Part shown: positions 4,265-63,832 of the stretch, in pieces | Layout of the letters: each line of letters starts with the position of its first letter | How positions within the stretch are numbered: position 1 is the stretch's first letter | Virus record (IMG/VR): IMGVR_UViG_3300045988_159115 | Direction: 5' to 3' (one strand) | Length of the DNA stretch: 64,000 bases | Origin: a virus | Position numbers and translations under genes: made by a program | Notes under the pieces: generated by a model | What the model was told of the DNA's origin: nothing | The model's database searches: none | What the model saw: only the letters and a program-made list of their open reading frames with translations

Positions 4265-4276
4265 ACAGGAAATTAA
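4265..4276 (+). promoter_or_regulatory. class B motif ACA-N6-TAA (candidate phage-RNAP promoter)
   Basis: ACAGGAAATTAA; 20 nt upstream of ATG 4297, after terminator 4202-4244. Confidence 0.5.
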
Positions 4277-4296
4277 TCGAAAAGGAGGTTGTGAAA

Positions 4297-5100
4297 ATGG
4301 CAGAAGAATATAGTAAGCTATACCTCAAAGATAATTACCTCAATAAAGGAATTTCCATTTTAACTGGAAAGACGATTATTGAGTATGACTTAAAATCAGC
4401 AAATACTAGCCTGTGCTCTGAATACCATCTTTTACCACAGGATCAGATTGAAAAAATATCGGCTCTACCAAGAAGTAAACGAGTGGTGAAGATTGGTAAG
4501 CTGTGTAGAAAAAATAAAGAGTTTAATGAAGGATTAAAGAAAGCATTCGTTGACATTCGTAGAAGATTCTTTGAAGCAAATAATATCCAAGATGAAGATA
4601 TTCTTGCGATCAAGAAAGATGCAATCTTTTGCCTTCGGAAATGCAAGGTAAATGAATTTGGCCCATGCCTATTCAGACCGAAAAATGTCTATAGCTCTTA
4701 TCTCTATTTACCACCACTGGAGCTCTACTACAAAGGCTCATATTTGCCTAGCAAAGAACTACTTGCCGTGAAGGGAATCTCTGATGAGACTCTACATCTT
4801 CACGAAGATTACATGCTCACATTTTTCAAACAACTTTTCAGACATATTGAGGAAGGAAAACAACACAACATTTTTCGATATCTTTCAGATTTTACGACAG
4901 CGTATAAGCTGAAACAGCTAGAACCTGGGTACTATCGAGAATTCAACCAGAATAGTCTAATGATTGATGAAGGTGGAGAAGTCACGTACGATGATGAGAC
5001 TTTCATACCATATGAAGGATCGGAGAAATCAGCTCATCTAAATATCGACTATAACTTCTCTAAGGTGATAATTCCTCTCCTCAATATTCTGATATACTGA
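4297..5100 (+). CDS. hypothetical protein (AT-rich codon usage)
   Basis: Track ORF 4213-5100 begins inside the upstream terminator. AAAAGGAGG SD plus ATG 4297 (MAEEYSKLYLK) is the credible start. Class B motif at 4265. Confidence 0.7.
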   Translation: MAEEYSKLYLKDNYLNKGISILTGKTIIEYDLKSANTSLCSEYHLLPQDQIEKISALPRSKRVVKIGKLCRKNKEFNEGLKKAFVDIRRRFFEANNIQDEDILAIKKDAIFCLRKCKVNEFGPCLFRPKNVYSSYLYLPPLELYYKGSYLPSKELLAVKGISDETLHLHEDYMLTFFKQLFRHIEEGKQHNIFRYLSDFTTAYKLKQLEPGYYREFNQNSLMIDEGGEVTYDDETFIPYEGSEKSAHLNIDYNFSKVIIPLLNILIY

Positions 5101-5113
5101 GGAGAGGATTGAT

Positions 5114-5530
5114 TTGCTCGAAGTTATTTACAACGAAATGTATGGGGTATGCCAACCGGATGGATTGATTCCTGATTGGATCAGCAATTACTTTTATAAG
5201 AATCACGACGATATCATGTCGGATGGGTTCTGCTGTAAGCTTTATGTCTCACAGTATCAGTTCATTGATGATCTGATTATCTTCCTTAAACTGACAGACT
5301 ATTACACTCCGCATGTGAAATTCTTCTATCATGAGAGGGAATGCTTCAAGGTAAAACAGAAATGGAATACGATTGATTTCCATCCCTATAAATTCCGAGA
5401 AGAACTTGAAAAGGCTAAGTATCGGTACGATATGATGCCGAATAAAATCTCCACGTCTCCTGCTCAGATTGAGAAGAAGTACGTGGAGGAAACTGGCCAT
5501 TACCAGTACGAATTTACTTTGAGTTCTTGA
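5114..5530 (+). CDS. hypothetical protein
   Basis: Track ORF; TTG start 13 nt after the previous stop, GGAGAGG SD. Same AT-rich codon style as 4297-5100. Confidence 0.55.
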   Translation: MLEVIYNEMYGVCQPDGLIPDWISNYFYKNHDDIMSDGFCCKLYVSQYQFIDDLIIFLKLTDYYTPHVKFFYHERECFKVKQKWNTIDFHPYKFREELEKAKYRYDMMPNKISTSPAQIEKKYVEETGHYQYEFTLSS

Positions 5531-5543
5531 CATGTATGATGGA

Positions 5544-6023
5544 TTATGCTTGCTCTTTCTGAGTCAGCTGATCCATCATATTTTTGTCCACATATGTGAG
5601 GACAGCAACGAAAGTTCTCTTTGTGATGCAACGCATCAGATATTCTTTCGTCATGACAAGATTCTTATCACTGAAGATTTCAGGCTTGATTGAATTAAAT
5701 ACTGCCTTAGAAATTTCTTCAATGTCTTTATCAATATCCATATTTTTTCCTTTTTTATCGAGGAAAATTTCATAGCGTTTATTATTCACAAGCTCGAGAG
5801 TTACTGTATCATCTATGAGAGTCAGTAACTCTCGAGTACATTTGATTCTTTGATCAATTTCCAAAGTAGGAGTGGAATCCTGAATCCGATTGATAAGATT
5901 CTGAGTTTCTGTAAGAACCTTATTGATTTTATAATTATATAGGACATAGACAATGCGTGATGCGACAGCTGCACCGATAATAAATGCAACTATCACAATC
6001 GCAATTACGAGAGATGTAGACAT
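5544..6023 (-). CDS. N-terminally membrane-anchored protein, function unknown
   Basis: Track ORF. One hydrophobic helix, MSTSLVIAIVIVAFIIGAAVASRIVYVLY. The start abuts the stop of 6025-6699, consistent with an operon. Confidence 0.65.
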   Translation of the reverse strand: MSTSLVIAIVIVAFIIGAAVASRIVYVLYNYKINKVLTETQNLINRIQDSTPTLEIDQRIKCTRELLTLIDDTVTLELVNNKRYEIFLDKKGKNMDIDKDIEEISKAVFNSIKPEIFSDKNLVMTKEYLMRCITKRTFVAVLTYVDKNMMDQLTQKEQA

Positions 6024-6024
6024 A

Positions 6025-6699
6025 TTAGTCTCCTTTCTTAGCGGCTAGTTTAACTACCGTGTCGTTTAGCTGGAGAATGCCAAAGTCGTTACTATCATAC
6101 ATCATAGAACGGTCGATGTACTTATTGAGTTTTTCTTTGAGGCGATCACTCATTGCAATACCATATTTCTCAATGAATGCATTTAGATCACCCCATGCCT
6201 GATTGTAGTTGATGAAGATATTTCTGTTATGAACTTCCTCATGAACTGTAGCAAGAAGCATCACAACCTGAATATGGTTTAACTGATGCTCATTCATTAC
6301 TTCATCAGCAATTCTAAAGGTGCTGATCTTTTTATTATTGAGGATGAACCATTCTGTCATAATCTCACAATAATCAAAGAGTGTGAAGATTGGACCATGG
6401 TGCATCTCAATTTCAATCTTTCCCTCTACATCAGGCTCTACATCAGGAAGAACTTGGCAATGATCCAGACCAATGACATTCTTTAAGTAGTAAATGTATT
6501 TTGAGTAACGATCATTCGTTCTCACCATACGTTCACAGCCTTTGATGAAATTCGTATAGGAATCAATATTTGAGAAGTATTCAACTCCTTTATACAGAGG
6601 AATCTGATACATACTTTCGCCAGCATTGACGAACGGAATTACTTTTCCGGATTCATTTTTTTCTTGGTTATATTCGATACCAGGGAGATTTCTTGGCAT
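6025..6699 (-). CDS. hypothetical protein
   Basis: Track ORF; GAGAGGAGAAA SD; class B motif 28 nt upstream (6728-6739). Confidence 0.7.
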   Translation of the reverse strand: MPRNLPGIEYNQEKNESGKVIPFVNAGESMYQIPLYKGVEYFSNIDSYTNFIKGCERMVRTNDRYSKYIYYLKNVIGLDHCQVLPDVEPDVEGKIEIEMHHGPIFTLFDYCEIMTEWFILNNKKISTFRIADEVMNEHQLNHIQVVMLLATVHEEVHNRNIFINYNQAWGDLNAFIEKYGIAMSDRLKEKLNKYIDRSMMYDSNDFGILQLNDTVVKLAAKKGD

Positions 6700-6727
6700 A
6701 GTAGTTTCTCCTCTCTATTAAAAATCG

Positions 6728-6739
6728 TTAATAGCATGT
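6728..6739 (-). promoter_or_regulatory. class B motif ACA-N6-TAA
   Basis: Reverse complement CTAAAAACATGCTATTAA; 28 nt upstream of minus-strand ATG 6699. Confidence 0.55.
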
Positions 6740-6782
6740 TTTTAGGGCATATTCTTATTGGCCCTAGAATTCTCTAGTGAAG

Positions 6783-6794
6783 ACATTGGTATAA
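6783..6794 (+). promoter_or_regulatory. class B motif ACA-N6-TAA
   Basis: ACATTGGTATAA; 40 nt upstream of ATG 6835. Confidence 0.55.
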
Positions 6795-6834
6795 TCTCTG
6801 AGAATGAAATAATAATGGAGGTGAGTGTGATACA

Positions 6835-10524: not shown

Positions 10525-10533
10525 GGTCTGAAA

Positions 10534-10545
10534 ACATTAGTGTAA
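10534..10545 (+). promoter_or_regulatory. class B motif ACA-N6-TAA
   Basis: CTGAAAACATTAGTGTAA; 56 nt upstream of ATG 10602. Confidence 0.6.
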
Positions 10546-10601
10546 CCTGATTTTTTGAGAACCTGCATTACTCAATATACTAAGAAAGGATGATGAAATC
10601 T

Positions 10602-11601: not shown

Positions 11602-11611
11602 ATATATTATA
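11602..11611 (+). promoter_or_regulatory. class A motif ATATATTATA (candidate early-type promoter)
   Basis: Exact 10-mer, just after terminator 11552-11597 and 67 nt upstream of the tubulin ATG 11679. Confidence 0.6.
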
Positions 11612-11630: not shown

Positions 11631-11642
11631 ACCATTAGTTAT
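11631..11642 (+). promoter_or_regulatory. class B variant (ACC-N6-TAT)
   Basis: CTGAAACCATTAGTTAT closely resembles CTGAAAACATTAGTGTA at 10528; 36 nt upstream of the tubulin ATG. Confidence 0.4.
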
Positions 11643-11678: not shown

Positions 11679-12824
11679 ATGCTAAGTATTTCTGTAGTGG
11701 GTATCGGTAACTGCGGTTCGCAAATCGCTGCGTTGGCTATGAAGAAGCTAAACGTACCTGTGATTGCGATCAACAGCAGTGAAAGAGATATCCAGACCCT
11801 GCCGGAAGACGTTCCGGTTTACTTGATGGGTGACGCCAAGGGCGCTGGCAAGCAGCGTATCATGGCAAAGCAGATGCTCAAGAAGTCCGTTATGGACATC
11901 CTTGAGAATCCGAAACTGAAGGACGTCTTCGCAAGTGACATCCTGTTTGTGGTGTCTTCTACTGGTGGCGGTACCGGTTCTGGTACTGCGATCCTGATGA
12001 CCAATATCATTCGTGAGGTCTACACGAAGGGTACTGTCGTCACGGTTGGCGTGCTTCCTACGCTCAAGGAAGCTCTGTCGACTCAGTTGAACAGCGTTGA
12101 GTATCTGAAGGAGCTGTATGGCACCATGACGGATACTACATATATGCTGTATGATAATGATCGTTGTTCGAAGAGTGCGATCGCCATGATGGATTCTGTG
12201 AACGAGCAGGTCGTCAACGATATGGATGTCATCCGCGGAACCTATCAGATTCCGACTCGTTACGCATCCATCGACGAGAGAGACATGCTCAACATCATCG
12301 GTACTCCTGGCCGTCTTGTTGTTGCTGGCGTTCGGGATATCGCAAAGCGTCGTGACGCAGATAACATCGACATCGAGGATGCTCTGATTGATGCTCTGCG
12401 TACCGCTCCGATTGCAGATCTCGAGAAGGATGGCGTGATTGCACGTACTGGTGTGATCAGTGCGCTGTCTTCTGATCTGAACGATCGGTTTGATACCCAT
12501 ATCCCGAAGGTTCTGAATGTCGTTGGTACTCCTGTCGAGGAGTTTGAGCATGTGGCGGTCAATACTGATCGTCATCTTCCGTCCAACGTCTTCATCGTGT
12601 GCTCTGGCATGAGCCAAGCAAACGATCGTCTTCGTAAGATCAATGATCGAATCGAAGAGATCAATTCTTTGCAGGAGAAGGCAAAGGCTGACGATTCTAT
12701 CATCTCCGAGATTGATGTTTCGAAGCTGAGCCAGAAGGTGAGCCACACCCGTACTCCTGCAAAGGAAAAGGAAGCAGGTACAGATTTCGACCTGAAGAGC
12801 ATCTTCTCGAAGTTCGGCATCTAA
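11679..12824 (+). CDS. tubulin/FtsZ-superfamily GTPase (phage PhuZ/TubZ-like)
   Basis: VVGIGNCGSQIA (G-box 1), tubulin signature SSTGGGTGSGTA, T7-loop-like YDNDR. AGGAGG SD 8 nt before the ATG. Confidence 0.9.
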   Translation: MLSISVVGIGNCGSQIAALAMKKLNVPVIAINSSERDIQTLPEDVPVYLMGDAKGAGKQRIMAKQMLKKSVMDILENPKLKDVFASDILFVVSSTGGGTGSGTAILMTNIIREVYTKGTVVTVGVLPTLKEALSTQLNSVEYLKELYGTMTDTTYMLYDNDRCSKSAIAMMDSVNEQVVNDMDVIRGTYQIPTRYASIDERDMLNIIGTPGRLVVAGVRDIAKRRDADNIDIEDALIDALRTAPIADLEKDGVIARTGVISALSSDLNDRFDTHIPKVLNVVGTPVEEFEHVAVNTDRHLPSNVFIVCSGMSQANDRLRKINDRIEEINSLQEKAKADDSIISEIDVSKLSQKVSHTRTPAKEKEAGTDFDLKSIFSKFGI

Positions 12825-12836: not shown

Positions 12837-12900
12837 AAGAGGGGAATAGTATTTTACCGAGGTGGTTACACTAAGGTAATTTTGGCTATCCCCTCTTTAT
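12837..12900 (+). terminator. large-loop hairpin after the tubulin gene (terminator-like; encloses class B motif)
   Basis: AGAGGGGA(A)TAG / CTATCCCCTCT arms, about 36-nt loop, followed by TTTAT. Confidence 0.4.
12868..12879 (+). promoter_or_regulatory. class B motif ACA-N6-TAA
   Basis: ACACTAAGGTAA, identical to the 12-mer at 63821; 52 nt upstream of ATG 12932. It lies in the loop of hairpin 12837-12900. Confidence 0.55.
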
Positions 12901-14666: not shown

Positions 14667-14745
14667 CGTGCTAGGAAGTCTATGATCCGAAAGGGATTTA
14701 ATCTCATAAATTGGGAAACTTTCCATTAATCCGTATAGGACTACG

Positions 14746-14774
14746 CATGAAAAACGAAAGGACGATATGAATGG
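14746..14774 (+). promoter_or_regulatory. conserved 29-nt leader with 7-codon uORF (MKNERTI) abutting the topoisomerase B-subunit start
   Basis: CATGAAAAACGAAAGGACGATATGAATGG. uORF ATG 14747 to TGA 14768-14770, then the main ATG at 14771. 28 of 29 nt are identical to 17372-17400. Confidence 0.6.
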
Positions 14775-17305: not shown

Positions 17306-17371
17306 CCTTGTATTTCCATTGTCTGGAAAACGTATATATAGGAGTGATCCTTATGTAAACTGAGATTACAT

Positions 17372-17400
17372 CATGAAAAACGAAAGGACGACATGAATGG
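17372..17400 (+). promoter_or_regulatory. conserved 29-nt leader with 7-codon uORF (MKNERTT) abutting the topoisomerase A-subunit start
   Basis: CATGAAAAACGAAAGGACGACATGAATGG. uORF ATG 17373 to TGA 17394-17396, then the main ATG at 17397. Confidence 0.6.
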
Positions 17401-19822: not shown

Positions 19823-19834
19823 ACAATTCCTTAA
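19823..19834 (+). promoter_or_regulatory. class B motif ACA-N6-TAA
   Basis: GCACAATTCCTTAA; 27 nt upstream of ATG 19862, after terminator 19769-19814. Confidence 0.55.
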
Positions 19835-23986: not shown

Positions 23987-23998
23987 TTACCCTATTGT
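23987..23998 (-). promoter_or_regulatory. class B motif ACA-N6-TAA
   Basis: Reverse complement CTAAAAACAATAGGGTAA; 43 nt upstream of the prohead protease ATG 23943. Confidence 0.6.
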
Positions 23999-24043: not shown

Positions 24044-24053
24044 ATATATTATA
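24044..24053 (+). promoter_or_regulatory. class A motif ATATATTATA
   Basis: Exact 10-mer in the context TAATGATATATTATAC; 86 nt upstream of ATG 24140. Confidence 0.6.
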
Positions 24054-24968: not shown

Positions 24969-24976
24969 CTTCTCAG

Positions 24977-25016
24977 AAGAAGGACCTAACAACCAGTTAG
25001 GTATCCTTCTTTTTTT
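24977..25016 (+). terminator. intrinsic terminator, bulged GGACCTAAC family
   Basis: GAAGGACCTAAC-AACCA-GTTAGG(TA)TCCTTC followed by TTTTTTT. Confidence 0.8.
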
Positions 25017-25070: not shown

Positions 25071-25508
25071 ATGACGATTACAGATGGTAGAGTTCCACAC
25101 GTCTGTGAGAATAGTACGATTGACAAATACATCAATACAAAAGCCCTCTTTAAGTTAGATGCGCATGGCGGTGTAATATTGGATCGGTTTTACATCGAGA
25201 TTTTCTACCACAGAGAACGGAGAAAGCAATTCCCGTATCAGCCAAATGTGACTTCATTAAAGATTCGAATCAAGGATCTGAATAATTATTCTGAGAAAAT
25301 CTTTGAAGATAAATTTGAGCAGTGGGAATTTTCTTCGATTCGAAAAATGATCAAAAAATATTCCGATTTTGAAAAAGTCGATTTTGAGTCGGCATATGTG
25401 GCTTTCAAAAAGAATTTGGAAGGAAGACTCACACTCATGCTTTATGACAATGCCGGAAAAGATATTTTATATAATGCGACAATGAATTCGGAGGGAGAAT
25501 TTGAATGA
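25071..25508 (+). CDS. hypothetical protein
   Basis: Track ORF 25026-25508; TAAGGAGG SD plus ATG 25071. Confidence 0.65.
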   Translation: MTITDGRVPHVCENSTIDKYINTKALFKLDAHGGVILDRFYIEIFYHRERRKQFPYQPNVTSLKIRIKDLNNYSEKIFEDKFEQWEFSSIRKMIKKYSDFEKVDFESAYVAFKKNLEGRLTLMLYDNAGKDILYNATMNSEGEFE

Positions 25509-26404
25509 AACCAAGACATGTATACCAGCTTGCTGCTGGTCTAATGGAATCGTATGCTACCTCAGCTCTTCAATTCCTTAATCCTTTGACTGGAATTGAT
25601 GACTTAAGGAAATCCGGTGTTCGATATGAAGTATCGGATTTTATTGGCCGGATTATTCCAAAGGGAGCAAATAAGATTTCTCGAAGTAAAGGGAATCCGA
25701 TCAAAGGAGTTTATCTTGGCACCGTTTCTGGAGCAATACCGATTTTTTTGTTTATGGATATGGATACGGCATATCTTGTGAAGACGACCGTAAACGGAGA
25801 AGTTGAATCGGCTGAACCGTATAAAGGATATAATCCTTTTCGTGGGATTGACCCATCGGATTCTTTTGTGGCAGATTCTACTTTTACCACGATATCAAAT
25901 TCTCTTTATCAGATTCCATTGACAAAAGCGATGTATGAATTTATAATTCATGGTGGTAGATATATTTCCCTCTCAAATCCGAATGGTTGGAATTATATTA
26001 CTCCGACTATTTGCAAACGAAAGAATCTGGAAGATCCATCCGTTTTATCTTATAAACTTCTCGGAAATCCACTTCCAGATTACACGTATCCGTTTGTGGA
26101 ATATGTGAATGGAAAGTTTGCACGAATTACTCAGATCGTGGATGACAGGAAGGTATCTATTGAAGAGCATGATATGAAGTCAGATTCTGAGCTCCGTTGG
26201 ATTACGAATTTCAAATGGCCAAATATGGACGCTTGTATCAGTACTCTCTTTCGATATGAATTGATTCGAGATTATCAGCCTATTTCCGATCTTACGGTAT
26301 CAAATTGTGATAATACAGAAATCTTCAATGTTTGTGCTCGGAATAAGCATCAGAAGACTTTTATCTATGAGCGTTCCACTGGACATATGACTTTGATTTT
26401 ATAA
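25505..26404 (+). CDS. hypothetical protein
   Basis: Track ORF; ATGA start/stop overlap with the previous gene. Confidence 0.7.
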   Translation: MKPRHVYQLAAGLMESYATSALQFLNPLTGIDDLRKSGVRYEVSDFIGRIIPKGANKISRSKGNPIKGVYLGTVSGAIPIFLFMDMDTAYLVKTTVNGEVESAEPYKGYNPFRGIDPSDSFVADSTFTTISNSLYQIPLTKAMYEFIIHGGRYISLSNPNGWNYITPTICKRKNLEDPSVLSYKLLGNPLPDYTYPFVEYVNGKFARITQIVDDRKVSIEEHDMKSDSELRWITNFKWPNMDACISTLFRYELIRDYQPISDLTVSNCDNTEIFNVCARNKHQKTFIYERSTGHMTLIL

Positions 26405-26408
26405 TACG

Positions 26409-26465
26409 TATACCTCCTTTCTTTGATTATATATTATAAAGGTAATCAATAAGAAAGGAGGTATA
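26409..26465 (+). promoter_or_regulatory. 15-bp perfect inverted repeat whose right arm is the SD of gene 26470 (anti-SD hairpin)
   Basis: TATACCTCCTTTCTT (26409-26423) pairs with AAGAAAGGAGGTATA (26451-26465). The 27-nt loop contains class A motif 26429-26438. Confidence 0.6.
26429..26438 (+). promoter_or_regulatory. class A motif ATATATTATA
   Basis: Exact 10-mer (TGATTATATATTATAA); 31 nt upstream of ATG 26470. It lies in the loop of inverted repeat 26409-26465. Confidence 0.6.
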
Positions 26466-28008: not shown

Positions 28009-28020
28009 TTACTGAGCTGT
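28009..28020 (-). promoter_or_regulatory. class B motif ACA-N6-TAA
   Basis: Reverse complement TTTTAACAGCTCAGTAA; 27 nt upstream of the RecA-like ATG 27981, after terminator 28035-28085. Confidence 0.55.
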
Positions 28021-29292: not shown

Positions 29293-29367
29293 AGGGATAT
29301 TTTCCTCCTTGCTCTTCTTTTTAGCTTATGATTTCTGTTTTTACCTCTATCTGAACCCACTATGAAA

Positions 29368-29379
29368 ACAGAATTTTAA
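29368..29379 (+). promoter_or_regulatory. class B motif ACA-N6-TAA
   Basis: TGAAAACAGAATTTTAA; 27 nt upstream of ATG 29407. Confidence 0.55.
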
Positions 29380-30642: not shown

Positions 30643-30652
30643 ATATATTATA
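30643..30652 (+). promoter_or_regulatory. class A motif ATATATTATA
   Basis: Exact 10-mer just after terminator 30598-30637; 33 nt upstream of the ligase ATG 30686. Confidence 0.6.
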
Positions 30653-33657: not shown

Positions 33658-33667
33658 ATATATTATA
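33658..33667 (+). promoter_or_regulatory. class A motif ATATATTATA
   Basis: Exact 10-mer; 133 nt upstream of ATG 33801. The leader contains an imperfect hairpin at about 33683-33741. Confidence 0.55.
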
Positions 33668-34546: not shown

Positions 34547-34594
34547 GGGCTGATATGATAATTCGAAAGAAATCATATCAGCCCATTATTTTTT
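34547..34594 (+). terminator. intrinsic terminator
   Basis: GGGCTGATATGAT / ATCATATCAGCCC followed by ATTATTTTTT. Confidence 0.8.
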
Positions 34595-34610
34595 CAGGAG
34601 GAAGCCACAA

Positions 34611-40910: not shown

Positions 40911-40936
40911 AATTTCACCTTTTCTATAGTGGTTTC

Positions 40937-40948
40937 ATATTGAATGGT
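40937..40948 (-). promoter_or_regulatory. class B variant (ACC-N6-TAT)
   Basis: Reverse complement CTAAAAACCATTCAATAT; 26 nt upstream of the Rad50-like ATG 40910. Confidence 0.4.
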
Positions 40949-41310
40949 TTTTAGGTGAATAACATGTTAGTAACTCCTTGACTGGATTGAACTACGAAGA
41001 TGTTCTTAATCAGTATGGATTTAATAGCTATAGATTTTTCTTTGGAACGAGTAATGTGGTTACGTCAGAAATATCTTTGATATGAAAACGGGACTTTTCA
41101 TCTTCATTGTACCTCCTAAGAATATAGTGGAAAACGTTTGCGCTCTGGTGATGTATCATAACAATTTTCGTGTATATGAACTTCCGGCGGATATGAGCAT
41201 TCTTCCTTCTTGACCTCATGGTCAAAAGCTATATAAAGTCCATCCTGTACTCCGTTGCCGATATCTCACGGATGGAAGGTGGAAGAGATATTGGGCGGTT
41301 TATATATACA

Positions 41311-41358
41311 AAGAAGACGCTATTATGTAATTGGAAAGGTTACATAATAGCGTCTTCT
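41311..41358 (-). terminator. hairpin terminator of the RNAP operon (minus strand)
   Basis: GAAGACGCTATTATGTAA / TTACATAATAGCGTCTTC. Confidence 0.7.
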
Positions 41359-41365
41359 GCTGTCG

Positions 41366-42683: not shown

Positions 42684-43904
42684 TTACAAGAGCATAGTAT
42701 CCGGATCAATCTGATTCGATTTGATGTTAGCTGTATGGAATTTCTTCATGCCCATCTTCAGAAGCTTTGTGGAAATCTGAGGGCAACCGAGGCCAATATT
42801 CAGGTTATCCAGCTTGTAGTTCAGCTCTCCTGCACAGATATTGCAGATATGCTTTCCCTTGCAATACATGGGGCTACGCAGTTTGATAGGCTTACCGACA
42901 TACTTACCGATAATCTCAGGAGTCAAGCAGACATACTTACCATTTTCTACGATGTACCGATACTCAAAGTCACGAGTATCTTTCGGAGTCATGATGTAGG
43001 AAATGGTCTTTTTTGTCCCGCAATCACTGCCATGCTCATCAAGAACTTCGCCCTGCATTGCTGCCAGAAGCTGTTTTGTCAGGTAGCCAGACTCAGCAGT
43101 ACCGACTGCTTTCGGGTATGCACCAGAAACGACGGATGTGCCGAAAGAAGGAATGTCTTGCTTTGTGATACCATCCATGAAAGACGATCTGACGATTTCA
43201 TATTCGCCAGTAATATTATTCATGGTAGCACCCTTATACAACATCATATTCTTGTAGTTACCGAAGTTACCACGAGCACCAGAATTATAAAGGTCCATAC
43301 CGGGGTCATCTGCAAGAAGTTTCTTTGCCTCACTGGTGAGTTCTTTCTCGATTTTCTCGGAAGTAACGATGTCACCCTCATTGAGCTTGTCATCATATTT
43401 CTTGAAAAGCTCTTCTTTTCGCTTAGCAATCTCAGGAGGGCATGCAATTGTCTTCTCACTGAAAGAAGTAGTGATAACAGAGTTCAGCTGCATTCCAAGA
43501 GTATCACGGTAATCGTAATAGTCATAGAAATCATTGATGCTGATCTTATCATCAATCAGAGCTTTTGCAAGTTGACTTTCGATAGATTCATATTTACCCT
43601 GAGTAACAGGCTCATTCACATACCCGAGAACACTCTGGAATCCAAAGCGTTCGATGAGGTACTTATTGAAGATGAACCTACCGACGGTTGTCTTCGTTTT
43701 CTCTTTTACGAAATACTCAGAAGGCTCCAATGTCATTTCGTCCCAAGTACTGAACTTAGATTTCTTAACTCCACTGAAAGCGTTCTGAGCATCTGTAGTA
43801 TCTCCGAAGAGATAGACGAGCTTTGTGAAAGTAAGATCATCCGGTTTTAATTCCAGAAGTTCTTTCTTTTCTGCTTCTGTGATTTTTCGAGCAGGTCTAG
43901 GCAT
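42684..43904 (-). CDS. multisubunit RNA polymerase beta-prime subunit fragment (regions E-G: bridge helix to first trigger-loop helix)
   Basis: TTVGRFIFNKYL; LYNSGARGNFGNYKNMMLYKG (SGARG...GMRG); bridge helix GTAESGYLTKQLLAAMQ (TA.SGYLTRRLVD); LRSPMYCKGKHICNICAG; GLGCPQISTKLLKMGMKKFHTA (AAQSIGEP.TQ.T..TFH.GG). Confidence 0.85.
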   Translation of the reverse strand: MPRPARKITEAEKKELLELKPDDLTFTKLVYLFGDTTDAQNAFSGVKKSKFSTWDEMTLEPSEYFVKEKTKTTVGRFIFNKYLIERFGFQSVLGYVNEPVTQGKYESIESQLAKALIDDKISINDFYDYYDYRDTLGMQLNSVITTSFSEKTIACPPEIAKRKEELFKKYDDKLNEGDIVTSEKIEKELTSEAKKLLADDPGMDLYNSGARGNFGNYKNMMLYKGATMNNITGEYEIVRSSFMDGITKQDIPSFGTSVVSGAYPKAVGTAESGYLTKQLLAAMQGEVLDEHGSDCGTKKTISYIMTPKDTRDFEYRYIVENGKYVCLTPEIIGKYVGKPIKLRSPMYCKGKHICNICAGELNYKLDNLNIGLGCPQISTKLLKMGMKKFHTANIKSNQIDPDTMLL

Positions 43905-43906
43905 CC

Positions 43907-44635
43907 TTAACCCTCCTCTTTCAGAGTCTTATTAATCATCAGGCCACGAGTGACCAGATCGGATTTAAGACCCATACCAAGCAGGTATACATCAACTGTA
44001 TTCAGAGTAGTCTTATTCTCAGGAGAAGATTCCATATCTTCCAGAGAGACATAACCCTTCGTATTGATTGCAGTATACATCTGCTGCTTCATAACCATAT
44101 CATCGGCACGAGGGCCATTGAGTTCCTTCAACGTATCCTTCATATTCATGCTGATGAGCATGGAATTTTCAAGGTCAGATTCACGGCCATTCTTATCAGC
44201 GCCACTAACCTGACCAGTAAGAGAAGAACGTGCATCTGCTGTGGTAGACAGACCGTTCTTCTTTGCAACCGTTTGCTGTGTACGTTTCACATGGCAGTAT
44301 CCAACAGGCACTGCTTCTTTGGAAACGATGATATTATTCTTATCCATTGTATAGTGAGGGAATGCAATTCTCTCAAACAGAGGAACGTTAAGTACCTTTG
44401 CTGCATCTTCAATATCAGGAACTTTCAGATCAATCTGATAGTCACAGACATTCAGAATCAGATACTCGTTCGGGTTTGCAAAAAATTCTTTGAAGAATTT
44501 ATCAAACTGAGCATCCGTCATGGTATCAAAGATGGATTTGTAGTGCTTCGTATTTGCGCCGGTCTTATCAAGAGCATTGAATGTCTTATAGATAAGATCT
44601 TCCATCTTCTTTCGTTTTTGCGGAGTTAACGCCAT
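43907..44635 (-). CDS. multisubunit RNA polymerase beta subunit, C-terminal fragment
   Basis: Track ORF 43907-44686; AAAGGAG SD plus ATG 44635. VGYCHVKRTQQTVAKKNGLSTTADARSSLTGQ (GY.Y.LKL.H.V.DK.HARS.GP..TQQP) and GRESDLENSMLISMNMKDTLKELNGPRADD (GGQR.GEME.WAL.AYGA..L.E.L..KSDD). Confidence 0.7.
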   Translation of the reverse strand: MALTPQKRKKMEDLIYKTFNALDKTGANTKHYKSIFDTMTDAQFDKFFKEFFANPNEYLILNVCDYQIDLKVPDIEDAAKVLNVPLFERIAFPHYTMDKNNIIVSKEAVPVGYCHVKRTQQTVAKKNGLSTTADARSSLTGQVSGADKNGRESDLENSMLISMNMKDTLKELNGPRADDMVMKQQMYTAINTKGYVSLEDMESSPENKTTLNTVDVYLLGMGLKSDLVTRGLMINKTLKEEG

Positions 44636-44679
44636 AACGATGTATCTCCTTTCGTTTAATGTGTAATAGACTAGGCTGC

Positions 44680-44691
44680 TTACCATTCTGT
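44680..44691 (-). promoter_or_regulatory. class B motif ACA-N6-TAA
   Basis: Reverse complement CTGAAAACAGAATGGTAA; 44 nt upstream of the RNAP beta-C ATG 44635. It lies in the loop of hairpin 44665-44724. Confidence 0.6.
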
Positions 44692-44732
44692 TTTCAGGAT
44701 GAAATTAAGCTGCCTAGTCTTATTTTATAATG

Positions 44733-44742
44733 ATATATTATA
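44733..44742 (+). promoter_or_regulatory. class A motif ATATATTATA
   Basis: Exact 10-mer in GTCTTATTTTATAATGATATATTATA, an extended context shared with site 50424. Upstream of ATG 44842. Confidence 0.6.
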
Positions 44743-44841
44743 TAGGTATAGAAAGTCCATAAATATAAAAAGAAAGGTTGTAAAAATACGTGGCTTATCT
44801 GAAAATACATGAAAAATAAAAGAATAGGAGTTGTAGAGACA

Positions 44842-45696: not shown

Positions 45697-46040
45697 TGCA
45701 GTATTCAGGATTATGGCTGTCAAAAGAAATGGCAGAATCTTTCATCGGATATATCCATGATGGATCGGCAGTACAAACTACTCTTCCGAATGAATATATC
45801 CATATCTTTGCTCGGATCACTGAGGGAGGCAAACTTTATTTCCGCCTTGATCCGAATGATGCCAAAAGCGGCGAATTCTATTTAACGAATGCCGCTGGCA
45901 ATGTTTCATACGCTCATGCAACCATCCAAAAGATGTATGAGGTTATCAGTGACATGTTCTACCTCACCCATGATCAGAAATACACGAGTTTGAAGACTAA
46001 GGTACGGCAGGCTGCCGAAATGAACTCGTGGTATAGATGA
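45696..46040 (+). CDS. hypothetical protein
   Basis: Track ORF; TAATG overlap with the previous gene. Confidence 0.6.
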   Translation: MQYSGLWLSKEMAESFIGYIHDGSAVQTTLPNEYIHIFARITEGGKLYFRLDPNDAKSGEFYLTNAAGNVSYAHATIQKMYEVISDMFYLTHDQKYTSLKTKVRQAAEMNSWYR

Positions 46041-46049
46041 TATATTATA
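46040..46049 (+). promoter_or_regulatory. class A motif ATATATTATA
   Basis: Exact 10-mer; 29 nt upstream of small ORF 46079 and the operon 46201-46884. Confidence 0.6.
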
Positions 46050-46884: not shown

Positions 46885-46903
46885 GTAACTCACATGCATT
46901 CTT

Positions 46904-46941
46904 GGAAGGACCTAACAGCCAGTTAGGCATCCCTCTTTTTT
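46904..46941 (+). terminator. intrinsic terminator, bulged GGACCTAAC family
   Basis: GAAGGACCTAAC-AGCCA-GTTAGG(CA)TCCCTC followed by TTTTTT. Confidence 0.8.
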
Positions 46942-46947: not shown

Positions 46948-46959
46948 ACACTAAATTAA
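46948..46959 (+). promoter_or_regulatory. class B motif ACA-N6-TAA
   Basis: ACACTAAATTAA; 33 nt upstream of ATG 46993, after terminator 46904-46941. Confidence 0.55.
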
Positions 46960-47187: not shown

Positions 47188-47369
47188 GTGCGCCTAACAG
47201 CTACTATTATGATGATTATTATGACGAGTTGGAATGGATGGATAATGCCAGCGCATTCGATTGGATCAGGTTTTATCTTGCAATCGGAATTATGATGGTC
47301 ATCCTGTACCCTATTTGGGCGGTCCAAAAAGTGAAAGAACTCATCACTGGCTTATTTAAGCACAATTGA
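47184..47369 (+). CDS. small membrane protein
   Basis: Track ORF 47157-47369. ATGA overlap start at 47184 (MSAPNSYYYDDYYDE...); TM helix FYLAIGIMMVILYPIWAV. Confidence 0.55.
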   Translation: MSAPNSYYYDDYYDELEWMDNASAFDWIRFYLAIGIMMVILYPIWAVQKVKELITGLFKHN

Positions 47370-47373
47370 TTAA
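47362..47373 (+). promoter_or_regulatory. class B motif ACA-N6-TAA
   Basis: GCACAATTGATTAA; overlaps the stop codon of 47184-47369; 45 nt upstream of ATG 47419. Confidence 0.5.
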
Positions 47374-50350: not shown

Positions 50351-50362
50351 TTAAGCTAATGT
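50351..50362 (-). promoter_or_regulatory. class B motif ACA-N6-TAA
   Basis: Reverse complement ACATTAGCTTAA; 31 nt upstream of minus-strand ATG 50319. Confidence 0.55.
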
Positions 50363-50373: not shown

Positions 50374-50414
50374 AATAAGACCAGATACTATTGATTTCTA
50401 GTATCTGGTCTTAT
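50374..50414. terminator. 18-bp perfect hairpin in a divergent promoter region (insulator/terminator-like)
   Basis: AAATAAGACCAGATACTA / TAGTATCTGGTCTTATTT. It sits between class B site 50351 (minus strand) and class A site 50424 (plus strand). Confidence 0.5.
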
Positions 50415-50423
50415 TTTATAATG

Positions 50424-50433
50424 ATATATTATA
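50424..50433 (+). promoter_or_regulatory. class A motif ATATATTATA
   Basis: Exact 10-mer in GTCTTATTTTATAATGATATATTATAC; 80 nt upstream of ATG 50514. Confidence 0.6.
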
Positions 50434-50513
50434 CACATAAGAAGCCATAGAGGAATGGAAGCAATAACCCATCGCAGTTAAATTTTTCATAATTGAAAGG
50501 AATTCAAAATATT

Positions 50514-50769: not shown

Positions 50770-50779
50770 ATATATTATA
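50770..50779 (+). promoter_or_regulatory. class A motif ATATATTATA
   Basis: Exact 10-mer just after terminator 50723-50765; 69 nt upstream of ATG 50849. Confidence 0.6.
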
Positions 50780-50848: not shown

Positions 50849-51235
50849 ATGATCATTAACGGTAATCGAATTGATTTGCTGGAAGACATGCAAACTGTCA
50901 TGGCAGAAAGGAAGGAGAAGGAATACTATTTCTCCTTCCATAATATCCGGCATGACATTTTCAGCACATGCTGTGACATGGAAGTCGTCACCAAATCTTC
51001 TGATGGCGAGTCTAAGGATACGTTTGGTATGACTATTATCGGAGAGAATATCTCTGACACTGGCCGCATTGCTGAGATGTTCTATGATGCAATGCGTACG
51101 AACGAATCTTTTGGTGTTTTCACTCTCATCAACGAGCATCCTGTTTCTGGTAAACGGATCCAGGTGAAAGAAAAAGATACCGACGGTAAAGAGAAGCAGA
51201 TTACGATCATTTTCTATGTGAAAGGAGTGATTTGA
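50849..51235 (+). CDS. small hypothetical protein
   Basis: Track ORF 50783-51235. GAAAGGAG SD plus ATG 50849. The longer start would overlap the class A motif at 50770. Confidence 0.6.
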   Translation: MIINGNRIDLLEDMQTVMAERKEKEYYFSFHNIRHDIFSTCCDMEVVTKSSDGESKDTFGMTIIGENISDTGRIAEMFYDAMRTNESFGVFTLINEHPVSGKRIQVKEKDTDGKEKQITIIFYVKGVI

Positions 51236-51237
51236 GA

Positions 51238-51627
51238 ATGAGAGTAGAACGCGAACGCAAGTCTACGAAAAACGAGCGTGGGCTAAATGACCGCTTTGTC
51301 ATTGAGGATTATGATGGACTTGGGAGTTATCTCATAATCTCTCCCGAGAAGTTTGACATAAGCCTTGACGGCTTTGTAGATGTTACTTATCAACTTCGAA
51401 ATGACCGGTGTGCAGAGCATATTGCGGTGCATATCTCGTATGATACTATCTTACATGCATCGGGCAAGATTAACGTCGCTGACATCTGCGAAGGCATTTT
51501 CTCCAATAAGGATAATATTTGCAATATTATCCAGGCGTACCCTGGCGCTTACATTCCGATCAAATTCGATGCGGACCCGTATCAGTATGGGTTTAACAGT
51601 GGCTATATGAAAAAGGAGGATTATTAA
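51238..51627 (+). CDS. small hypothetical protein
   Basis: Track ORF 51232-51627; AAAGGAG SD plus ATG 51238. Confidence 0.6.
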   Translation: MRVERERKSTKNERGLNDRFVIEDYDGLGSYLIISPEKFDISLDGFVDVTYQLRNDRCAEHIAVHISYDTILHASGKINVADICEGIFSNKDNICNIIQAYPGAYIPIKFDADPYQYGFNSGYMKKEDY

Positions 51628-51628
51628 G

Positions 51629-52084
51629 ATGATGGAATATTTTTCTGGTGAGTATTACGTAGTTAAGGGGTCTGACAAGAACTACATGTTCTACAACCAT
51701 ACGGCAGTTCATGATGACCGCACCGAGGAGCGTGGAGACGAGTTTTACAACACCTTCAATATGATCTACCGGGACAGTGAAGGGAAGCTTCAGGAACGAA
51801 TCTTTGAAGCATCCGCTCAGCTGAGCGATAAGAAGGTTGTTGCATTCTCCTGTGACACCTTCCATTATCTCATGATTGAGATGATGAATAACCCGATGAA
51901 GCTCGGTTCCGTTGTCCGGAATCTTATCTTCGAGAAGCCGAAGTCTATCGTTCTGAACGACTTCAACCTTGAGATGCTGAAGGATGAGTGCGATTCCGAT
52001 GAGGTGATTCAGGTGACGGGTCCCAATCAGGATGACGTCATCGTTACCTTCAAGCCCATCTCTCCTACCACAAGAAAGGACTGA
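51629..52084 (+). CDS. small hypothetical protein
   Basis: Track ORF; AAAGGAGG SD. Confidence 0.6.
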   Translation: MMEYFSGEYYVVKGSDKNYMFYNHTAVHDDRTEERGDEFYNTFNMIYRDSEGKLQERIFEASAQLSDKKVVAFSCDTFHYLMIEMMNNPMKLGSVVRNLIFEKPKSIVLNDFNLEMLKDECDSDEVIQVTGPNQDDVIVTFKPISPTTRKD

Positions 52085-52088
52085 TAAC

Positions 52089-52502
52089 GTGACCGATCAT
52101 TACAAGGTTTTTGCAGATCAGATCATTGCGAAAGAAGTCTATAACGAGAGCGATGATACGGTTTATACCATCGTGCCTTGCAGCTCTGGTATGGATGCTT
52201 GTCCTGGAACTGATGGTTATTACGCAATGATCTGGCATAACGCTTCTGGCTTCTCTTCGAAGTTCTTTAAGCTCTCTGTGGTTAAGAAAGAAGAGATTGC
52301 TGACTATTGCACTGCCGATCGGATGTGTGAAGAGGTTATCACAGATACCAGGTCTCTCATTAAGCTGATTAGCAATTTGAATGCTGGCACTATGACGCAG
52401 TGTCTCGTACATCTGTCTCTTCCCTCCGAGCATAACGGATATTTTAACGGAGCTTTTCGTCAGGAATATGACATCGTCGTTGCAATTACTCCGGTGAAAT
52501 AA
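52089..52502 (+). CDS. small hypothetical protein
   Basis: Track ORF 52032-52502. GAAAGGA SD 8 nt before GTG 52089, which removes the 53-nt overlap. Bidirectional terminator 52506-52548 follows. Confidence 0.5.
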   Translation: MTDHYKVFADQIIAKEVYNESDDTVYTIVPCSSGMDACPGTDGYYAMIWHNASGFSSKFFKLSVVKKEEIADYCTADRMCEEVITDTRSLIKLISNLNAGTMTQCLVHLSLPSEHNGYFNGAFRQEYDIVVAITPVK

Positions 52503-54061: not shown

Positions 54062-54073
54062 CTATGTGTATGT
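54062..54073 (-). promoter_or_regulatory. class B variant (ACA-N6-TAG)
   Basis: Reverse complement CCAAAAAAACATACACATAG; 24 nt upstream of the SF2 helicase ATG 54037, after hairpin 54089-54132. Confidence 0.4.
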
Positions 54074-54738: not shown

Positions 54739-54750
54739 TTATATGTCTGT
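54739..54750 (-). promoter_or_regulatory. class B motif ACA-N6-TAA
   Basis: Reverse complement ACAGACATATAA; 62 nt upstream of minus-strand ATG 54676. Confidence 0.5.
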
Positions 54751-54771: not shown

Positions 54772-54783
54772 ACACATACATAA
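54772..54783 (+). promoter_or_regulatory. class B motif ACA-N6-TAA
   Basis: AACACATACATAA; 29 nt upstream of the endolysin ATG 54813. Confidence 0.6.
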
Positions 54784-56866: not shown

Positions 56867-56876
56867 TATAATATAT
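56867..56876 (-). promoter_or_regulatory. class A motif ATATATTATA (minus strand)
   Basis: The reverse complement reads TGATTATATATTATAATTATAGTG; 56 nt upstream of minus-strand ATG 56810. Confidence 0.6.
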
Positions 56877-56959
56877 AATCAAAAACAATTAGGTAGAAAT
56901 GTTTTCCTTCTTCCTTTCAAATTTTGGTCGGTCGAACACGCGCGGGCAAAATCATATGA

Positions 56960-57000
56960 TCCAGACTGCTGTAACGTCTTAGATTACAGTAGTCTGGATT
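56960..57000 (-). terminator. second hairpin downstream of the fibre-like gene
   Basis: ATCCAGACTGCTGTAA / TTACAGTAGTCTGGAT; weak T-tracts. Confidence 0.45.
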
Positions 57001-57017
57001 ATGCTTTATTAGACAAG

Positions 57018-57063
57018 AAAAATCCCTATGGAATACCAGTATAAGTATCCATAGGGATTTTTT
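57018..57063 (-). terminator. intrinsic terminator (A/T flanked, bidirectional)
   Basis: AAAAATCCCTATGGA / TCCATAGGGATTTTTT. Confidence 0.85.
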
Positions 57064-57080
57064 ATGCTAGAGGATAAAGA

Positions 57081-58451: not shown

Positions 58452-58475
58452 TTCTGTTATCCTCCTTTCTTCTCA

Positions 58476-58991: not shown

Positions 58992-59057
58992 ATAGATTTA
59001 TCACCCTTTCTTTAAGATTATTACCCAATATCGTTATAATAAAGGACAGATCAGGTA

Positions 59058-59069
59058 TTAGCTATATGT
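59058..59069 (-). promoter_or_regulatory. class B motif ACA-N6-TAA
   Basis: Reverse complement CTAAAAACATATAGCTAA; overlaps the stop of 59072-60160; 66 nt upstream of ATG 58991. Confidence 0.6.
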
Positions 59070-59071
59070 TT

Positions 59072-60160: not shown

Positions 60161-60205
60161 ATAAAGACCACCTTTCGTTGGTAATTAATGGAAAGCCTAG
60201 AAAAC

Positions 60206-60217
60206 TTATGCATCTGT
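60206..60217 (-). promoter_or_regulatory. class B motif ACA-N6-TAA
   Basis: Reverse complement GGAAAAACAGATGCATAA; 45 nt upstream of ATG 60160. Confidence 0.55.
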
Positions 60218-60246
60218 TTTTCCTATCCTTTTTCATTGGCCTTGTG

Positions 60247-60258
60247 ACAGTTGACTAA
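60247..60258 (+). promoter_or_regulatory. class B motif ACA-N6-TAA
   Basis: ACAGTTGACTAA; 28 nt upstream of the PolB ATG 60287. Confidence 0.5.
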
Positions 60259-60286
60259 ACGAAAGACCGAAAGGAATGAAACTAAT

Positions 60287-62970: not shown

Positions 62971-62974
62971 AACT

Positions 62975-63027
62975 AAAAAATAAGAACCAAGGTTTCTCGT
63001 ACTAGAGTGAACCTTGGTTCTTATTTT
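62975..63027 (+). terminator. intrinsic terminator
   Basis: AAAAAATAAGAACCAAGGTT / AACCTTGGTTCTTATTTT. Confidence 0.85.
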
Positions 63028-63029
63028 AC

Positions 63030-63068
63030 AAAAAAGAAGGGATACCTAGCTGGTTGCTAGGTCCCTTG
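63030..63068 (-). terminator. intrinsic terminator, bulged GGACCTAAC family (minus strand)
   Basis: Reverse complement AAGGGACCTAGC-AACCA-GCTAGG(TA)TCCCTT followed by CTTTTTT. Confidence 0.8.
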
Positions 63069-63078
63069 ATCCCATGGA

Positions 63079-63684
63079 TTATTTCATAGGATCGAAGTCA
63101 CGAACCAAGAATGGTACGTAGATGTTGTCTATATTCATGAGGAGGAAATAGCAAATGCCGTCCTCGCTCATGAAATGGTGAATTTTCATGTATTCGGTGT
63201 GATCGCCATAGACATCCTGGACAGCCTTGTACTCATTAGCATACTGGATGCCGATGAGTTGGTCGCCATTGGTGGACGTAGCGAACAGATCCGCGCTCGA
63301 AATCCTCAAGTAGTTCTTTCCGGTGGAAAGCACAGACATGAAATCATCGAACGATTCCGGAGAGAACCCGGTATAGTGCATGAGATCGTTGATGACGTCG
63401 GGGGTGAAGATAGTTTCCAGATTGAGGCCGCGAACGAACTGTGTGAGCACAACGTTCTTATTGGGTTTGACTGTCTTGTAGATCGGGCTCTTTACGATGA
63501 TGTCACCATTCAGGAGGGAAGAGCATTGCTGATCAGCCGTATTAGCGTAGAGCAACCGATCGTATATCTCAGAATACCCTTCGTAATATTTAACAGACCC
63601 ATTGACTACCGTTGCTTTGATGATGTGAAATGGATTGTACTGTTCGGTGCGGCGCAAGGCGCTCTTGCTGATTTCATATCCCAT
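63079..63684 (-). CDS. hypothetical protein
   Basis: Track ORF; GGAGAAGGAAAA SD. Class A motif at 63761-63770. Terminator 63030-63068. Confidence 0.65.
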   Translation of the reverse strand: MGYEISKSALRRTEQYNPFHIIKATVVNGSVKYYEGYSEIYDRLLYANTADQQCSSLLNGDIIVKSPIYKTVKPNKNVVLTQFVRGLNLETIFTPDVINDLMHYTGFSPESFDDFMSVLSTGKNYLRISSADLFATSTNGDQLIGIQYANEYKAVQDVYGDHTEYMKIHHFMSEDGICYFLLMNIDNIYVPFLVRDFDPMK

Positions 63685-63760
63685 TCTGTTTTCCTTCTCC
63701 TAGTATACACTAGGCCAAAATGAATATAAGTAAACCGATTGCTTACTTCATATTCACTAT

Positions 63761-63770
63761 TATAATATAT
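63761..63770 (-). promoter_or_regulatory. class A motif ATATATTATA (minus strand)
   Basis: The reverse complement reads TAATTATATATTATAATAGTG; 76 nt upstream of minus-strand ATG 63684. Confidence 0.6.
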
Positions 63771-63820
63771 AATTATTTTAAATGATTAACTGTTATACTC
63801 CACAGGAAATGATGCTGAAA

Positions 63821-63832
63821 ACACTAAGGTAA
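63821..63832 (+). promoter_or_regulatory. class B motif ACA-N6-TAA
   Basis: CTGAAAACACTAAGGTAA; 73 nt upstream of ATG 63906. Confidence 0.55.

Follow-up and report, generated by a model that had tools for sequence, protein, structure and literature searches.

Introduction

In the phages AR9/PBS1 the holoenzyme of the non-virion RNA polymerase (nvRNAP) is composed of gp105, gp089, gp270 and gp154 together with gp226, and in AR9 it is this gp226-containing holoenzyme that reads the late promoters (PMC9209446). These promoters follow the consensus AACA-(6N)-TA/G, in which the last base is the transcription start site, and 94 late start sites have been located by differential RNA sequencing (dRNA-seq; PMC5312081). 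The early promoters of AR9 show another consensus, AAATATATATTAT-(6N)-G, established from 41 early start sites by the same approach (PMC5312081). A motif of comparable architecture, ACA-N6-TAA, is described here in a stretch of viral DNA of 64,000 nucleotides (nt), IMG/VR record IMGVR_UViG_3300045988_159115, which is referred to as the window. An earlier note on this DNA had proposed the motif as candidate promoter of the phage's own multisubunit RNA polymerase. The present analysis favours, with a probability of roughly 85%, its being the promoter class of the nvRNAP of an uncultivated jumbo phage of ~260 kilobases (kb) related to AR9/PBS1.

Recognition of the AR9 late promoters is unusual in that gp226 and the beta-N subunit (gp105) bind the template strand, 3'-UUGU-5', at positions -11 to -8 (PMC9209446), and uracil is strictly required at template positions -11 and -10 (PMC7598289, PMC9209446). 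The promoter class and its enzyme were described for AR9 in 2017-2022, so what follows is not a new principle but the extension of a known class to an uncultivated lineage. The AR9 late consensus was given in the earlier note as AACA-N6-TW, which is right in substance, although TW should read TA/G (PMC5312081).

The ACA-N6-TAA motif in the window

The gene model of the window, built from codon usage and ribosome-binding sites, contains 66 genes. From it, 49 sense-upstream regions (5,483 nt) were taken, and 1000 dinucleotide-preserving shuffles were used as chance baseline. The 19 sites listed in the earlier note, claimed to lie 20-75 nt upstream of start codons, are all exact copies of ACA-N6-TAA at their coordinates and on their strands; measured from TAA, the start codons are 20-73 nt away, and 17 of the sites fall in non-coding DNA directly upstream of a same-strand gene. 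The same note was also accurate about the CT(G/A)AAAACA flanks, about the 12-mer ACACTAAGGTAA found at both 12868 and 63821, and about five near-variants, which are present as forms with one or two mismatches at 11631 (ACCATTAGTTAT), 20733 (ACGAAGAAGTAA), 33135 (ACAATTAGTTAT), 40937 on the minus strand (ACCATTCAATAT) and 54062 on the minus strand (ACATACACATAG). Six copies lie beyond its list: one (40962, plus strand) is intergenic and conserved in relatives, and the other five are either coding or in contact with the end of a gene (17194, 22309, 37360, 62865 and 63492). All intergenic copies are aimed at the downstream gene, except that at 40962, which is aimed at a conserved non-coding region. 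Many sites are located directly 3' of a terminator hairpin or within divergent intergenic regions.

One explanation for such a pattern would be the A+T-rich composition of intergenic DNA combined with selective reading. Related to this, the motif is not enriched globally: both strands of the window contain 25 copies, fewer than the mean of 34.9 in whole-window dinucleotide shuffles. In sense-upstream DNA, on the other hand, there are 18 copies against a shuffle mean of 2.73 (standard deviation 1.70, maximum 9), and the spacing is strict, the N5 and N7 controls giving 2 copies each, without enrichment. A scan of 53,248 trinucleotide-gap-trinucleotide pairs (gaps 0-12, each pair scored against the trinucleotide content of the same upstream regions) placed ACA-6-TAA in rank 2, with 18 copies against 2.56 expected (p = 3e-10); the only dyad above it is the Shine-Dalgarno sequence. 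The upstream shuffles, the spacer controls and the dyad scan, together with the held-out flanks and the conservation in relatives described below, reject the compositional explanation, to which practically no weight is given.

Within the upstream regions the 3' block at spacer 6 is TAA in 18 cases, TAG in 4, TAT in 1 and TAC in none, and TGN stays at background. The base before ACA (position -11) is A in 11 of the 19 sites, and a preference for C and T is added 6 and 5 bases upstream of ACA (-16/-15), which gives the fuller consensus C-T-R-A-A-A-ACA-N6-TAA. Sigma70-like pairs do not accompany the motif, as had already been remarked: they are rarer than in shuffles in each of the three 20-kb segments covered (1-60000).

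The enrichment upstream of genes has its counterpart in coding DNA (57.6 kb), which carries 3 copies of ACA-N6-TAA instead of the 23.1 obtained from synonymous-codon shuffles (observed/expected 0.13). Its antisense strand carries 0 copies where ~14 are expected, and the spacer-5 and spacer-7 controls in coding DNA are only ~2-fold under their shuffles. These figures also bear on the idea that the motif is not a promoter but a signal acting at the RNA level in 5' leaders, such as an RNase processing site or the site of a translational regulator. A signal of this kind would agree with the place of the motif in 5' leaders, where its distance to the start codon varies (20-73 nt), but it does not explain the purge of the antisense strand. 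Besides, sites after terminators or in divergent regions stand where no upstream transcript is expected, and in AR9 the homologous motif has been mapped as a start site. An RNA-level function is consequently considered very improbable.

Conservation in relatives and in held-out DNA

Relatives were taken from IMG/VR at three levels of protein identity, about 80%, 60-70% and 30-50% (roughly 30-90% overall). They were found at the protein level only; 20 kb searched by megablast against GenBank phages gave no match, and a 760-amino acid (aa) protein searched by tblastn gave none. For the 15 motif-bearing genes with a readable ortholog upstream region, ACA-N6-TAA is present in 30 of 32 ortholog instances, usually with a different spacer and at 23-74 nt from the ATG. 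Orthologs of window genes without the motif carry it in 2 of 26 instances.

Conservation is concentrated in the core itself. In MAFFT alignments of 110-nt upstream regions, made blind to the motif, 67 of the 72 cells in the six core columns are invariant, compared with 42/72 for the spacer, 42/72 for the six bases upstream of the core and 472/912 for all other intergenic columns. More distant jumbo-phage contigs and AR9 itself likewise prefer spacer 6.

The flanks of the window, 10 kb on each side in the same genome, were held out; window and flanks together amount to ~84 kb, about a third of a genome that recurs in several metagenomes. The flanks contain 6 new ACA-N6-TAA copies within ~1.5 kb of sense-upstream sequence, where spacers 5 and 7 give none, and 2 copies within coding sequence (16.4 kb). 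Among the genes behind the new sites are homologs of AR9 g125, g126 (tail sheath), g238 and g242; a virion protein and guanylate kinase are also among the homologs.

Polymerase genes and temporal classes of the orthologs

The earlier note had stated that the window encodes a split RNA polymerase of the AR9/phiKZ kind, and homologs of gp105, g078 and g264 are indeed present. The product of the gene at 34611-36392 (+) is homologous to gp105, the beta-N subunit of the AR9 nvRNAP, with 31% identity (PDB 7S00 chain c, E = 8.6e-52). This is the nvRNAP subunit seen in the window, the other three not being found in the ~84 kb examined. Two virion-RNAP subunit genes, homologs of AR9 g078 and g264 with 37% identity each, occupy 42684-44635 (-). 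What had been called an RNAP beta-C/beta-prime operon does contain RNAP genes, but they are virion-RNAP fragments, beta-prime-like by a weak match to Pfam RNA_pol_Rpb1_5 (E = 0.0035, short of the curated cut-off). The gene at 47419 (330 aa) was tried as RNAP beta-C on the basis of a weak gp089 match (E = 0.002). This assignment was abandoned, since relatives have as ortholog a 631-aa protein that contains three internal repeats and matches nothing in AR9; the gene codes for a repeat protein and not for an RNAP subunit.

Window genes were mapped to AR9 genes by tblastn, and their temporal classes were taken from the AR9 tables of mapped promoters. In 16 cases a promoter has been mapped for the AR9 ortholog of the gene or operon behind a site, and it is late in 15 of them. 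Exact sites stand before orthologs of the late genes g239, g261, g260, g114, g086, g078, g052 and g128; the g264 and g251 orthologs share the site of the g078 ortholog, being part of its operon. The orthologs of g016, g139 and g156 have variant sites, and in AR9 g139 and g156 are placed behind the late promoters of g140 and g155. The flank sites, before orthologs of g125, g126, g238 and g242, complete the 15 with late start sites in AR9.

The likeness to the AR9/PBS1 late class covers several features: an ACA block and a TA block exactly 6 nt apart, no -35 element, location 20-70 nt before the starts of virion, lysis and recombination genes, frequent divergent pairs and the sharing of the motif by orthologs. 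The AR9-type early promoter motif is found alongside it, and a beta-N homolog is encoded.

A different enzyme could in principle be responsible. Short promoters without a -35 region are well known for the late genes of T4 (TATAAATA), a single short A+T-rich element used with gp55 and gp33. The motif might by analogy be a -10-like element for the host RNAP working with a phage sigma-like factor, such as T4 gp55 on TATAAATA or SPO1 gp28 and gp33/34, in which case the start would be placed some bases downstream of TAA. The resemblance of a short motif without -35 to T4 late promoters agrees with this, as does the fact that no gp226 homolog was found in the searches made. T4 late promoters differ, however, in sequence and in lacking the bipartite spacing, and they are used by the host core enzyme, whereas the present phage encodes nvRNAP beta-N and virion-RNAP subunits. 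Moreover, no sigma-factor family was detected among the window proteins scanned, and architecture and spacing are those of the mapped AR9 nvRNAP promoter, in front of orthologs of AR9 late genes. Use of the motif by the host RNAP is for these reasons regarded as unlikely.

Recognition by the phage nvRNAP, supported by the AR9 literature, the homologies, the ortholog classes and the conservation of the core, also invites comparison with phiKZ, whose late promoters (TATG) are read by an nvRNAP with gp68. Both cases would involve a multisubunit phage enzyme that includes a fifth subunit, works independently of the host RNAP and uses a very short promoter. In phiKZ, in contrast, the sequence is another one without upstream ACA block, and promoters are not predictable from sequence.

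The early-type motif

A second promoter class, absent from the earlier note, corresponds to the early promoters of AR9. Its core ATATATTAT occurs at 11 sense-upstream sites (shuffle mean 0.34) and nowhere in coding sequence away from a start codon. A purine follows after N6 at all 11 sites, so the motif can be written ATATATTAT-N6-R. Behind these sites are small genes without known families, the genes for a ligase and for a tubulin-like protein, and the operon containing nvRNAP beta-N. As in AR9, the core ATATATTAT is identical, a purine is found 6 nt downstream, and small ORFan genes and an nvRNAP gene are preceded by the motif. The differences are that the upstream AAA of AR9 is replaced here by T-T-R or AATG, and that A and G are equally frequent as start base.

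Proposed transcription scheme

The analysis establishes the late-type motif itself, with its spacing, strand, position, conservation, gene association and rarity in coding DNA, as well as the homology of the polymerase genes. From homology with AR9 we infer which enzyme reads the motif, which base is the start and that the template strand is recognised. In the model proposed, ACA would occupy positions -10 to -8 and the T of TAA position -1, with transcription starting at the first A of TAA; the leaders implied by this start measure 21-74 nt, which is compatible with an AR9-type start. Contact with the ACA block, probably via its template strand, would be made by beta-N and a sigma-like specificity subunit. 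This class would drive all the non-early genes, that is, those for virion proteins, lysis, recombination, DNA polymerase and the virion-RNAP subunits. The ATATATTAT-N6-R class, for its part, would be read by the injected virion RNAP and would drive the small early genes and nvRNAP beta-N. The two enzymes would feed each other, as in AR9 and phiKZ: the injected enzyme would provide for the nvRNAP, and this in turn for the virion RNAP of the next generation. Such a circuit is suggested by the beta-N operon being placed behind an early-type motif and the virion-RNAP genes behind a late-type motif.

Both classes can be read directly from the DNA of this phage. For an uncultivated 260-kb phage the transcription units and their temporal classes can in this way be mapped almost completely, and the same promoter rule extends to its metagenomic relatives. 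In addition, the free -11 position, the fixed A at +2, the altered pocket and the coding purge, described below and above, offer a natural comparison for the recognition of very short promoters by a multisubunit RNAP that looks sigma-less, and the differences bear on how general the uracil dependence is in the clade.

Differences from AR9 and the uracil question

The earlier note considered the motif to fit the AR9 consensus; this holds for ACA-N6-TA and for the strict spacing, but the two are not identical at -11 and +2. In this phage +1 is A, G not being enriched, whereas AR9 uses A/G, and +2 is A in ~80% of the sites, a preference that AR9 does not have. The C/T preference at -16/-15 is likewise additional with respect to AR9. 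The coding DNA of AR9 (220 kb) contains 168-186 motif copies, with an observed/expected ratio of 0.85, very different from the 0.13 of this phage.

Several results weigh against assigning the motif to an AR9-like nvRNAP and should be considered together. First, -11 is not A in 8 of the 19 sites, though AR9 strictly needs it, and sites of this kind are conserved in relatives (46948, 47362, 50351 and 60247). Second, the residues R363 and K375 of the gp105 pocket for the -10 deoxyuridine (dU) and the nearby N382 align here with S, N and F, in an approximate alignment at ~31% identity; phage BpSp keeps R, K and N at these beta-N positions. Third, no homolog of gp226, the AR9 specificity subunit with its 2.1bis helix and V206, was matched by BLAST or profile in the window plus 20 kb of flanks (about a third of the genome). 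Searches of a set of 5.8 billion proteins and pattern scans of viral contigs recovered gp226 relatives down to 22% identity, none of them on the source contig. Fourth, the only exception among the temporal classes is the DNA polymerase, whose gene is early in AR9 (g132) and has here a late-type motif that is kept in relatives. Finally, the gyrase genes show neither motif in ~200-250 nt upstream, though their AR9 orthologs are early.

To the left of the window, L065 8598-9986 (its last codons are window positions 1-160) encodes, behind an early-type promoter, a 462-aa protein without a known family. In size and in promoter class it is like AR9 gp226, yet it gives no match to the gp226 profile.

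The G+C content of this phage is 41%, compared with ~28% in AR9, and a tubulin-like protein is encoded. According to a 2020 review, nuclei positioned by PhuZ occur in jumbo phages with thymine DNA and are absent from the uracil-DNA group. A tentative and rather doubtful extension of the nvRNAP assignment is that this lineage carries a naturally relaxed form of the AR9 template-strand recognition, in which ACA and TAA suffice and there is no deoxyuridine dependence. The free -11 position, the replaced dU pocket, the lack of a detectable gp226 ortholog and the presence of the tubulin-like gene are the reasons for proposing it. A six-base core sufficient in thymine DNA would explain the removal of the motif from both coding strands, while AR9 tolerates hundreds of copies.

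Late-type sites along the window

Individual sites are described below in the order of the window, and relatives are named by contig (L017 and so on) where their sequences have to be told apart. The first core, ACAGGAAATTAA at 4265-4276 (+), lies 20 nt before the ATG at 4297 of a gene similar to AR9 g239, for which a late promoter has been mapped. A divergent pair follows. On the minus strand, CTAAAAACATGCTATTAA (6728-6739) is 28 nt before the g261-like gene 6699-6025 (late in AR9); on the plus strand, ACATTGGTATAA (6783-6794) is 40 nt before the gene of the 1229-aa virion protein, similar to AR9 g260 (late), and the L019 ortholog retains ACAAATGCTTAA. The site CTGAAAACATTAGTGTAA at 10534-10545 (+), 56 nt before the virion structural gene 10602 (phrog_19418), is retained in the L019 ortholog as ACAACCTATTAA. 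At 12868-12879 (+), ACACTAAGGTAA stands 52 nt before 12932, inside an inverted repeat. The site ACAATTCCTTAA at 19823-19834 (+), 27 nt before 19862, is directly 3' of a terminator hairpin, and the L058 and L059 orthologs have ACA-N6-TAA with other spacers.

The prohead protease gene 23943-23065 (AR9 g114, late) is preceded at 43 nt by CTAAAAACAATAGGGTAA (23987-23998, -), and L058 and L059 have CTGAAAACACTAATTTAA, also 43 nt from the start. At 28009-28020 (-), TTAACAGCTCAGTAA is found 27 nt before the UvsX/RecA-like gene 27981-26752 (AR9 g086, late), with ACAGCTTTCTAA in L058 and L059. Close to it, TGAAAACAGAATTTTAA at 29368-29379 (+), 27 nt before 29407, is kept in L058, L059 and L064, the L064 spacer being different. 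A probable but weak spacing variant, AAAACA-N7-TAA, is located at 29326-29338 (-) before the RecD-like helicase gene 29292-28096 (AR9 g016, late); in the orthologs of L058 and L059 the exact N6 motif is absent.

The twentieth intergenic copy, ATAACATGTTAGTAA at 40962-40973 (+), is aimed into a region without open reading frames (ORFs) and is identical in L017 and L018. This region (40911-41365), 455 nt without a convincing ORF, is conserved in L017 and L018 and ends in a hairpin of 21 base pairs (bp). It has no Rfam match, and its fold z-score is -4.3 with the hairpin included; it may correspond to a late non-coding RNA or to a small ORF. On the opposite strand, the weak degenerate variant CTAAAAACCATTCAATAT (40937-40948, -) precedes the SbcC-like gene 40910-38304, orthologous to g139, and the exact motif was not found there in the relatives. 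The near-variants 11631 (+) and 40937 (-), before the tubulin-like and the SbcC-like gene respectively, share the form AAACC-ATTNNN-TAT after a CT(G/A)AAA flank, and this form may represent a weaker late-type sub-class.

The virion-RNAP operon consists of 44635-43907 (g078-like), 43904-42684 (g264-like) and 42652-41366, and CTGAAAACAGAATGGTAA at 44680-44691 (-) lies 44 nt before it. This site is kept in L017, L018, L029 and L019, with different spacers in the last two, and g078 and g264 are late in AR9. Further on, ACACTAAATTAA at 46948-46959 (+), 33 nt before 46993, appears as ACACTAGAATAA in L017 and as ACATTGGAATAA in L018. The site ACAATTGATTAA at 47362-47373 (+), 45 nt before the repeat-protein gene 47419, overlaps the stop of the small ORF before it; it is identical in L017 and L018 and reads ACAATGTATTAA in L029. 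At 50351-50362 (-), GGACATTAGCTTAA is 31 nt before 50319-49081, similar to AR9 g052 (late), and is kept with other spacers in L029 and L019. The variant AAAAACATACACATAG (54062-54073, -), with TAG for TAA, precedes the SF2 helicase gene 54037-52553, the AR9 ortholog of which (g156) sits downstream of the g155 late promoter.

Two more divergent pairs are found towards the right end. In the first, AACAGACATATAA (54739-54750, -) is 62 nt before 54676-54224 and reads ACACATCTATAA in L054 and L055, and AACACATACATAA (54772-54783, +) is 29 nt before the endolysin gene 54813, the core being kept and the spacers changed in the same two relatives. In the second, GAAAAACAGATGCATAA (60206-60217, -) is 45 nt before 60160-59072, with GAAAACAGAGACTTAA in L054 and L055, and TGACAGTTGACTAA (60247-60258, +) is 28 nt before the DNA polymerase gene 60287, with the core kept as ACATTTGACTAA in L054 and ACAGTAGTCTAA in L055. 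Between both pairs, CTAAAAACATATAGCTAA at 59058-59069 (-) lies 66 nt before 58991-58476 and corresponds to ACATACAGATAA in L055. The last site, CTGAAAACACTAAGGTAA at 63821-63832 (+), is 73 nt before a portal-like gene that begins at 63906 and runs off the window; the AR9 portal gene, g128, is late.

Early-type sites along the window

All early-type sites but two are on the plus strand. The first, ATATATTAT-N6-G at 11602-11610, precedes the tubulin-like gene 11679, and those at 24044-24052 and 26429-26437 precede genes 24140 and 26470. The site at 30643-30651, before the NAD-dependent DNA ligase gene 30686, is kept in L058 and L059. The same relatives keep the site at 33658-33666, which precedes 33801 and, by read-through, nvRNAP beta-N at 34611; AR9 g104-g105 are early. 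The beta-N gene is preceded at 34553-34610 by a hairpin with a T-run and has no promoter of its own, and it is probably expressed by read-through from 33658. The remaining plus-strand sites are 44733-44741 (before gene 44842, kept in L017), 46040-46048 (before the small ORF 46079 and gene 46201), 50424-50432 (before gene 50514) and 50770-50778 (before the gene cluster 50849-52502). On the minus strand, 56868-56876 precedes 56810-56271 and 56267-55509 and is kept in L054, and 63762-63770 precedes 63684-63079 and is kept in L054 and L055.

The sites at 44733 and 50424 have a block in common, GTCTTATTTTATAATGATATATTATA (within 44650-44745 and 50375-50435), each directly after a hairpin of 14-15 bp, and the late-type site 44680 (-) sits in the loop of the hairpin at 44.7 kb. 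The gene behind the first early-type site, 11679-12824, encodes a tubulin/FtsZ-like protein (PHROG PhuZ family, E = 5.9e-13; FtsZ and TubZ in PDB, ~1e-9 to 1e-7). It is preceded by both an early-type promoter and a degenerate late-type site and has no AR9 homolog.

Other observations

Most of the small window genes have no family in Pfam or PHROGs, and PDB sequence searches with the 456-, 465-, 330- and 760-aa proteins of the window gave nothing useful. Rfam and tRNA scans of the window gave no match either. Inverted repeats were considered as a component of the promoter and discarded as a general feature because most sites are outside them, only 44680, 12868 and 54739 being inside repeats. 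Two ACA-N6-TAG copies, at 24989 and 46915, are false positives, inside terminator hairpins. These hairpins, at ~24975-25010 and ~46900-46935, are near-identical and have the form GAAGGACCTAACA(A/G)CCAGTTAGG..TTTTTT. A perfect sigma70 consensus, TTGACA-17-TATAAT, is present at 25919-25947 (+) within the coding sequence 25505-26404. The GyrB-like and GyrA-like genes have a common leader, CATGAAAAACGAAAGGACGAYATGAATG, at 14743-14773 and 17369-17399.

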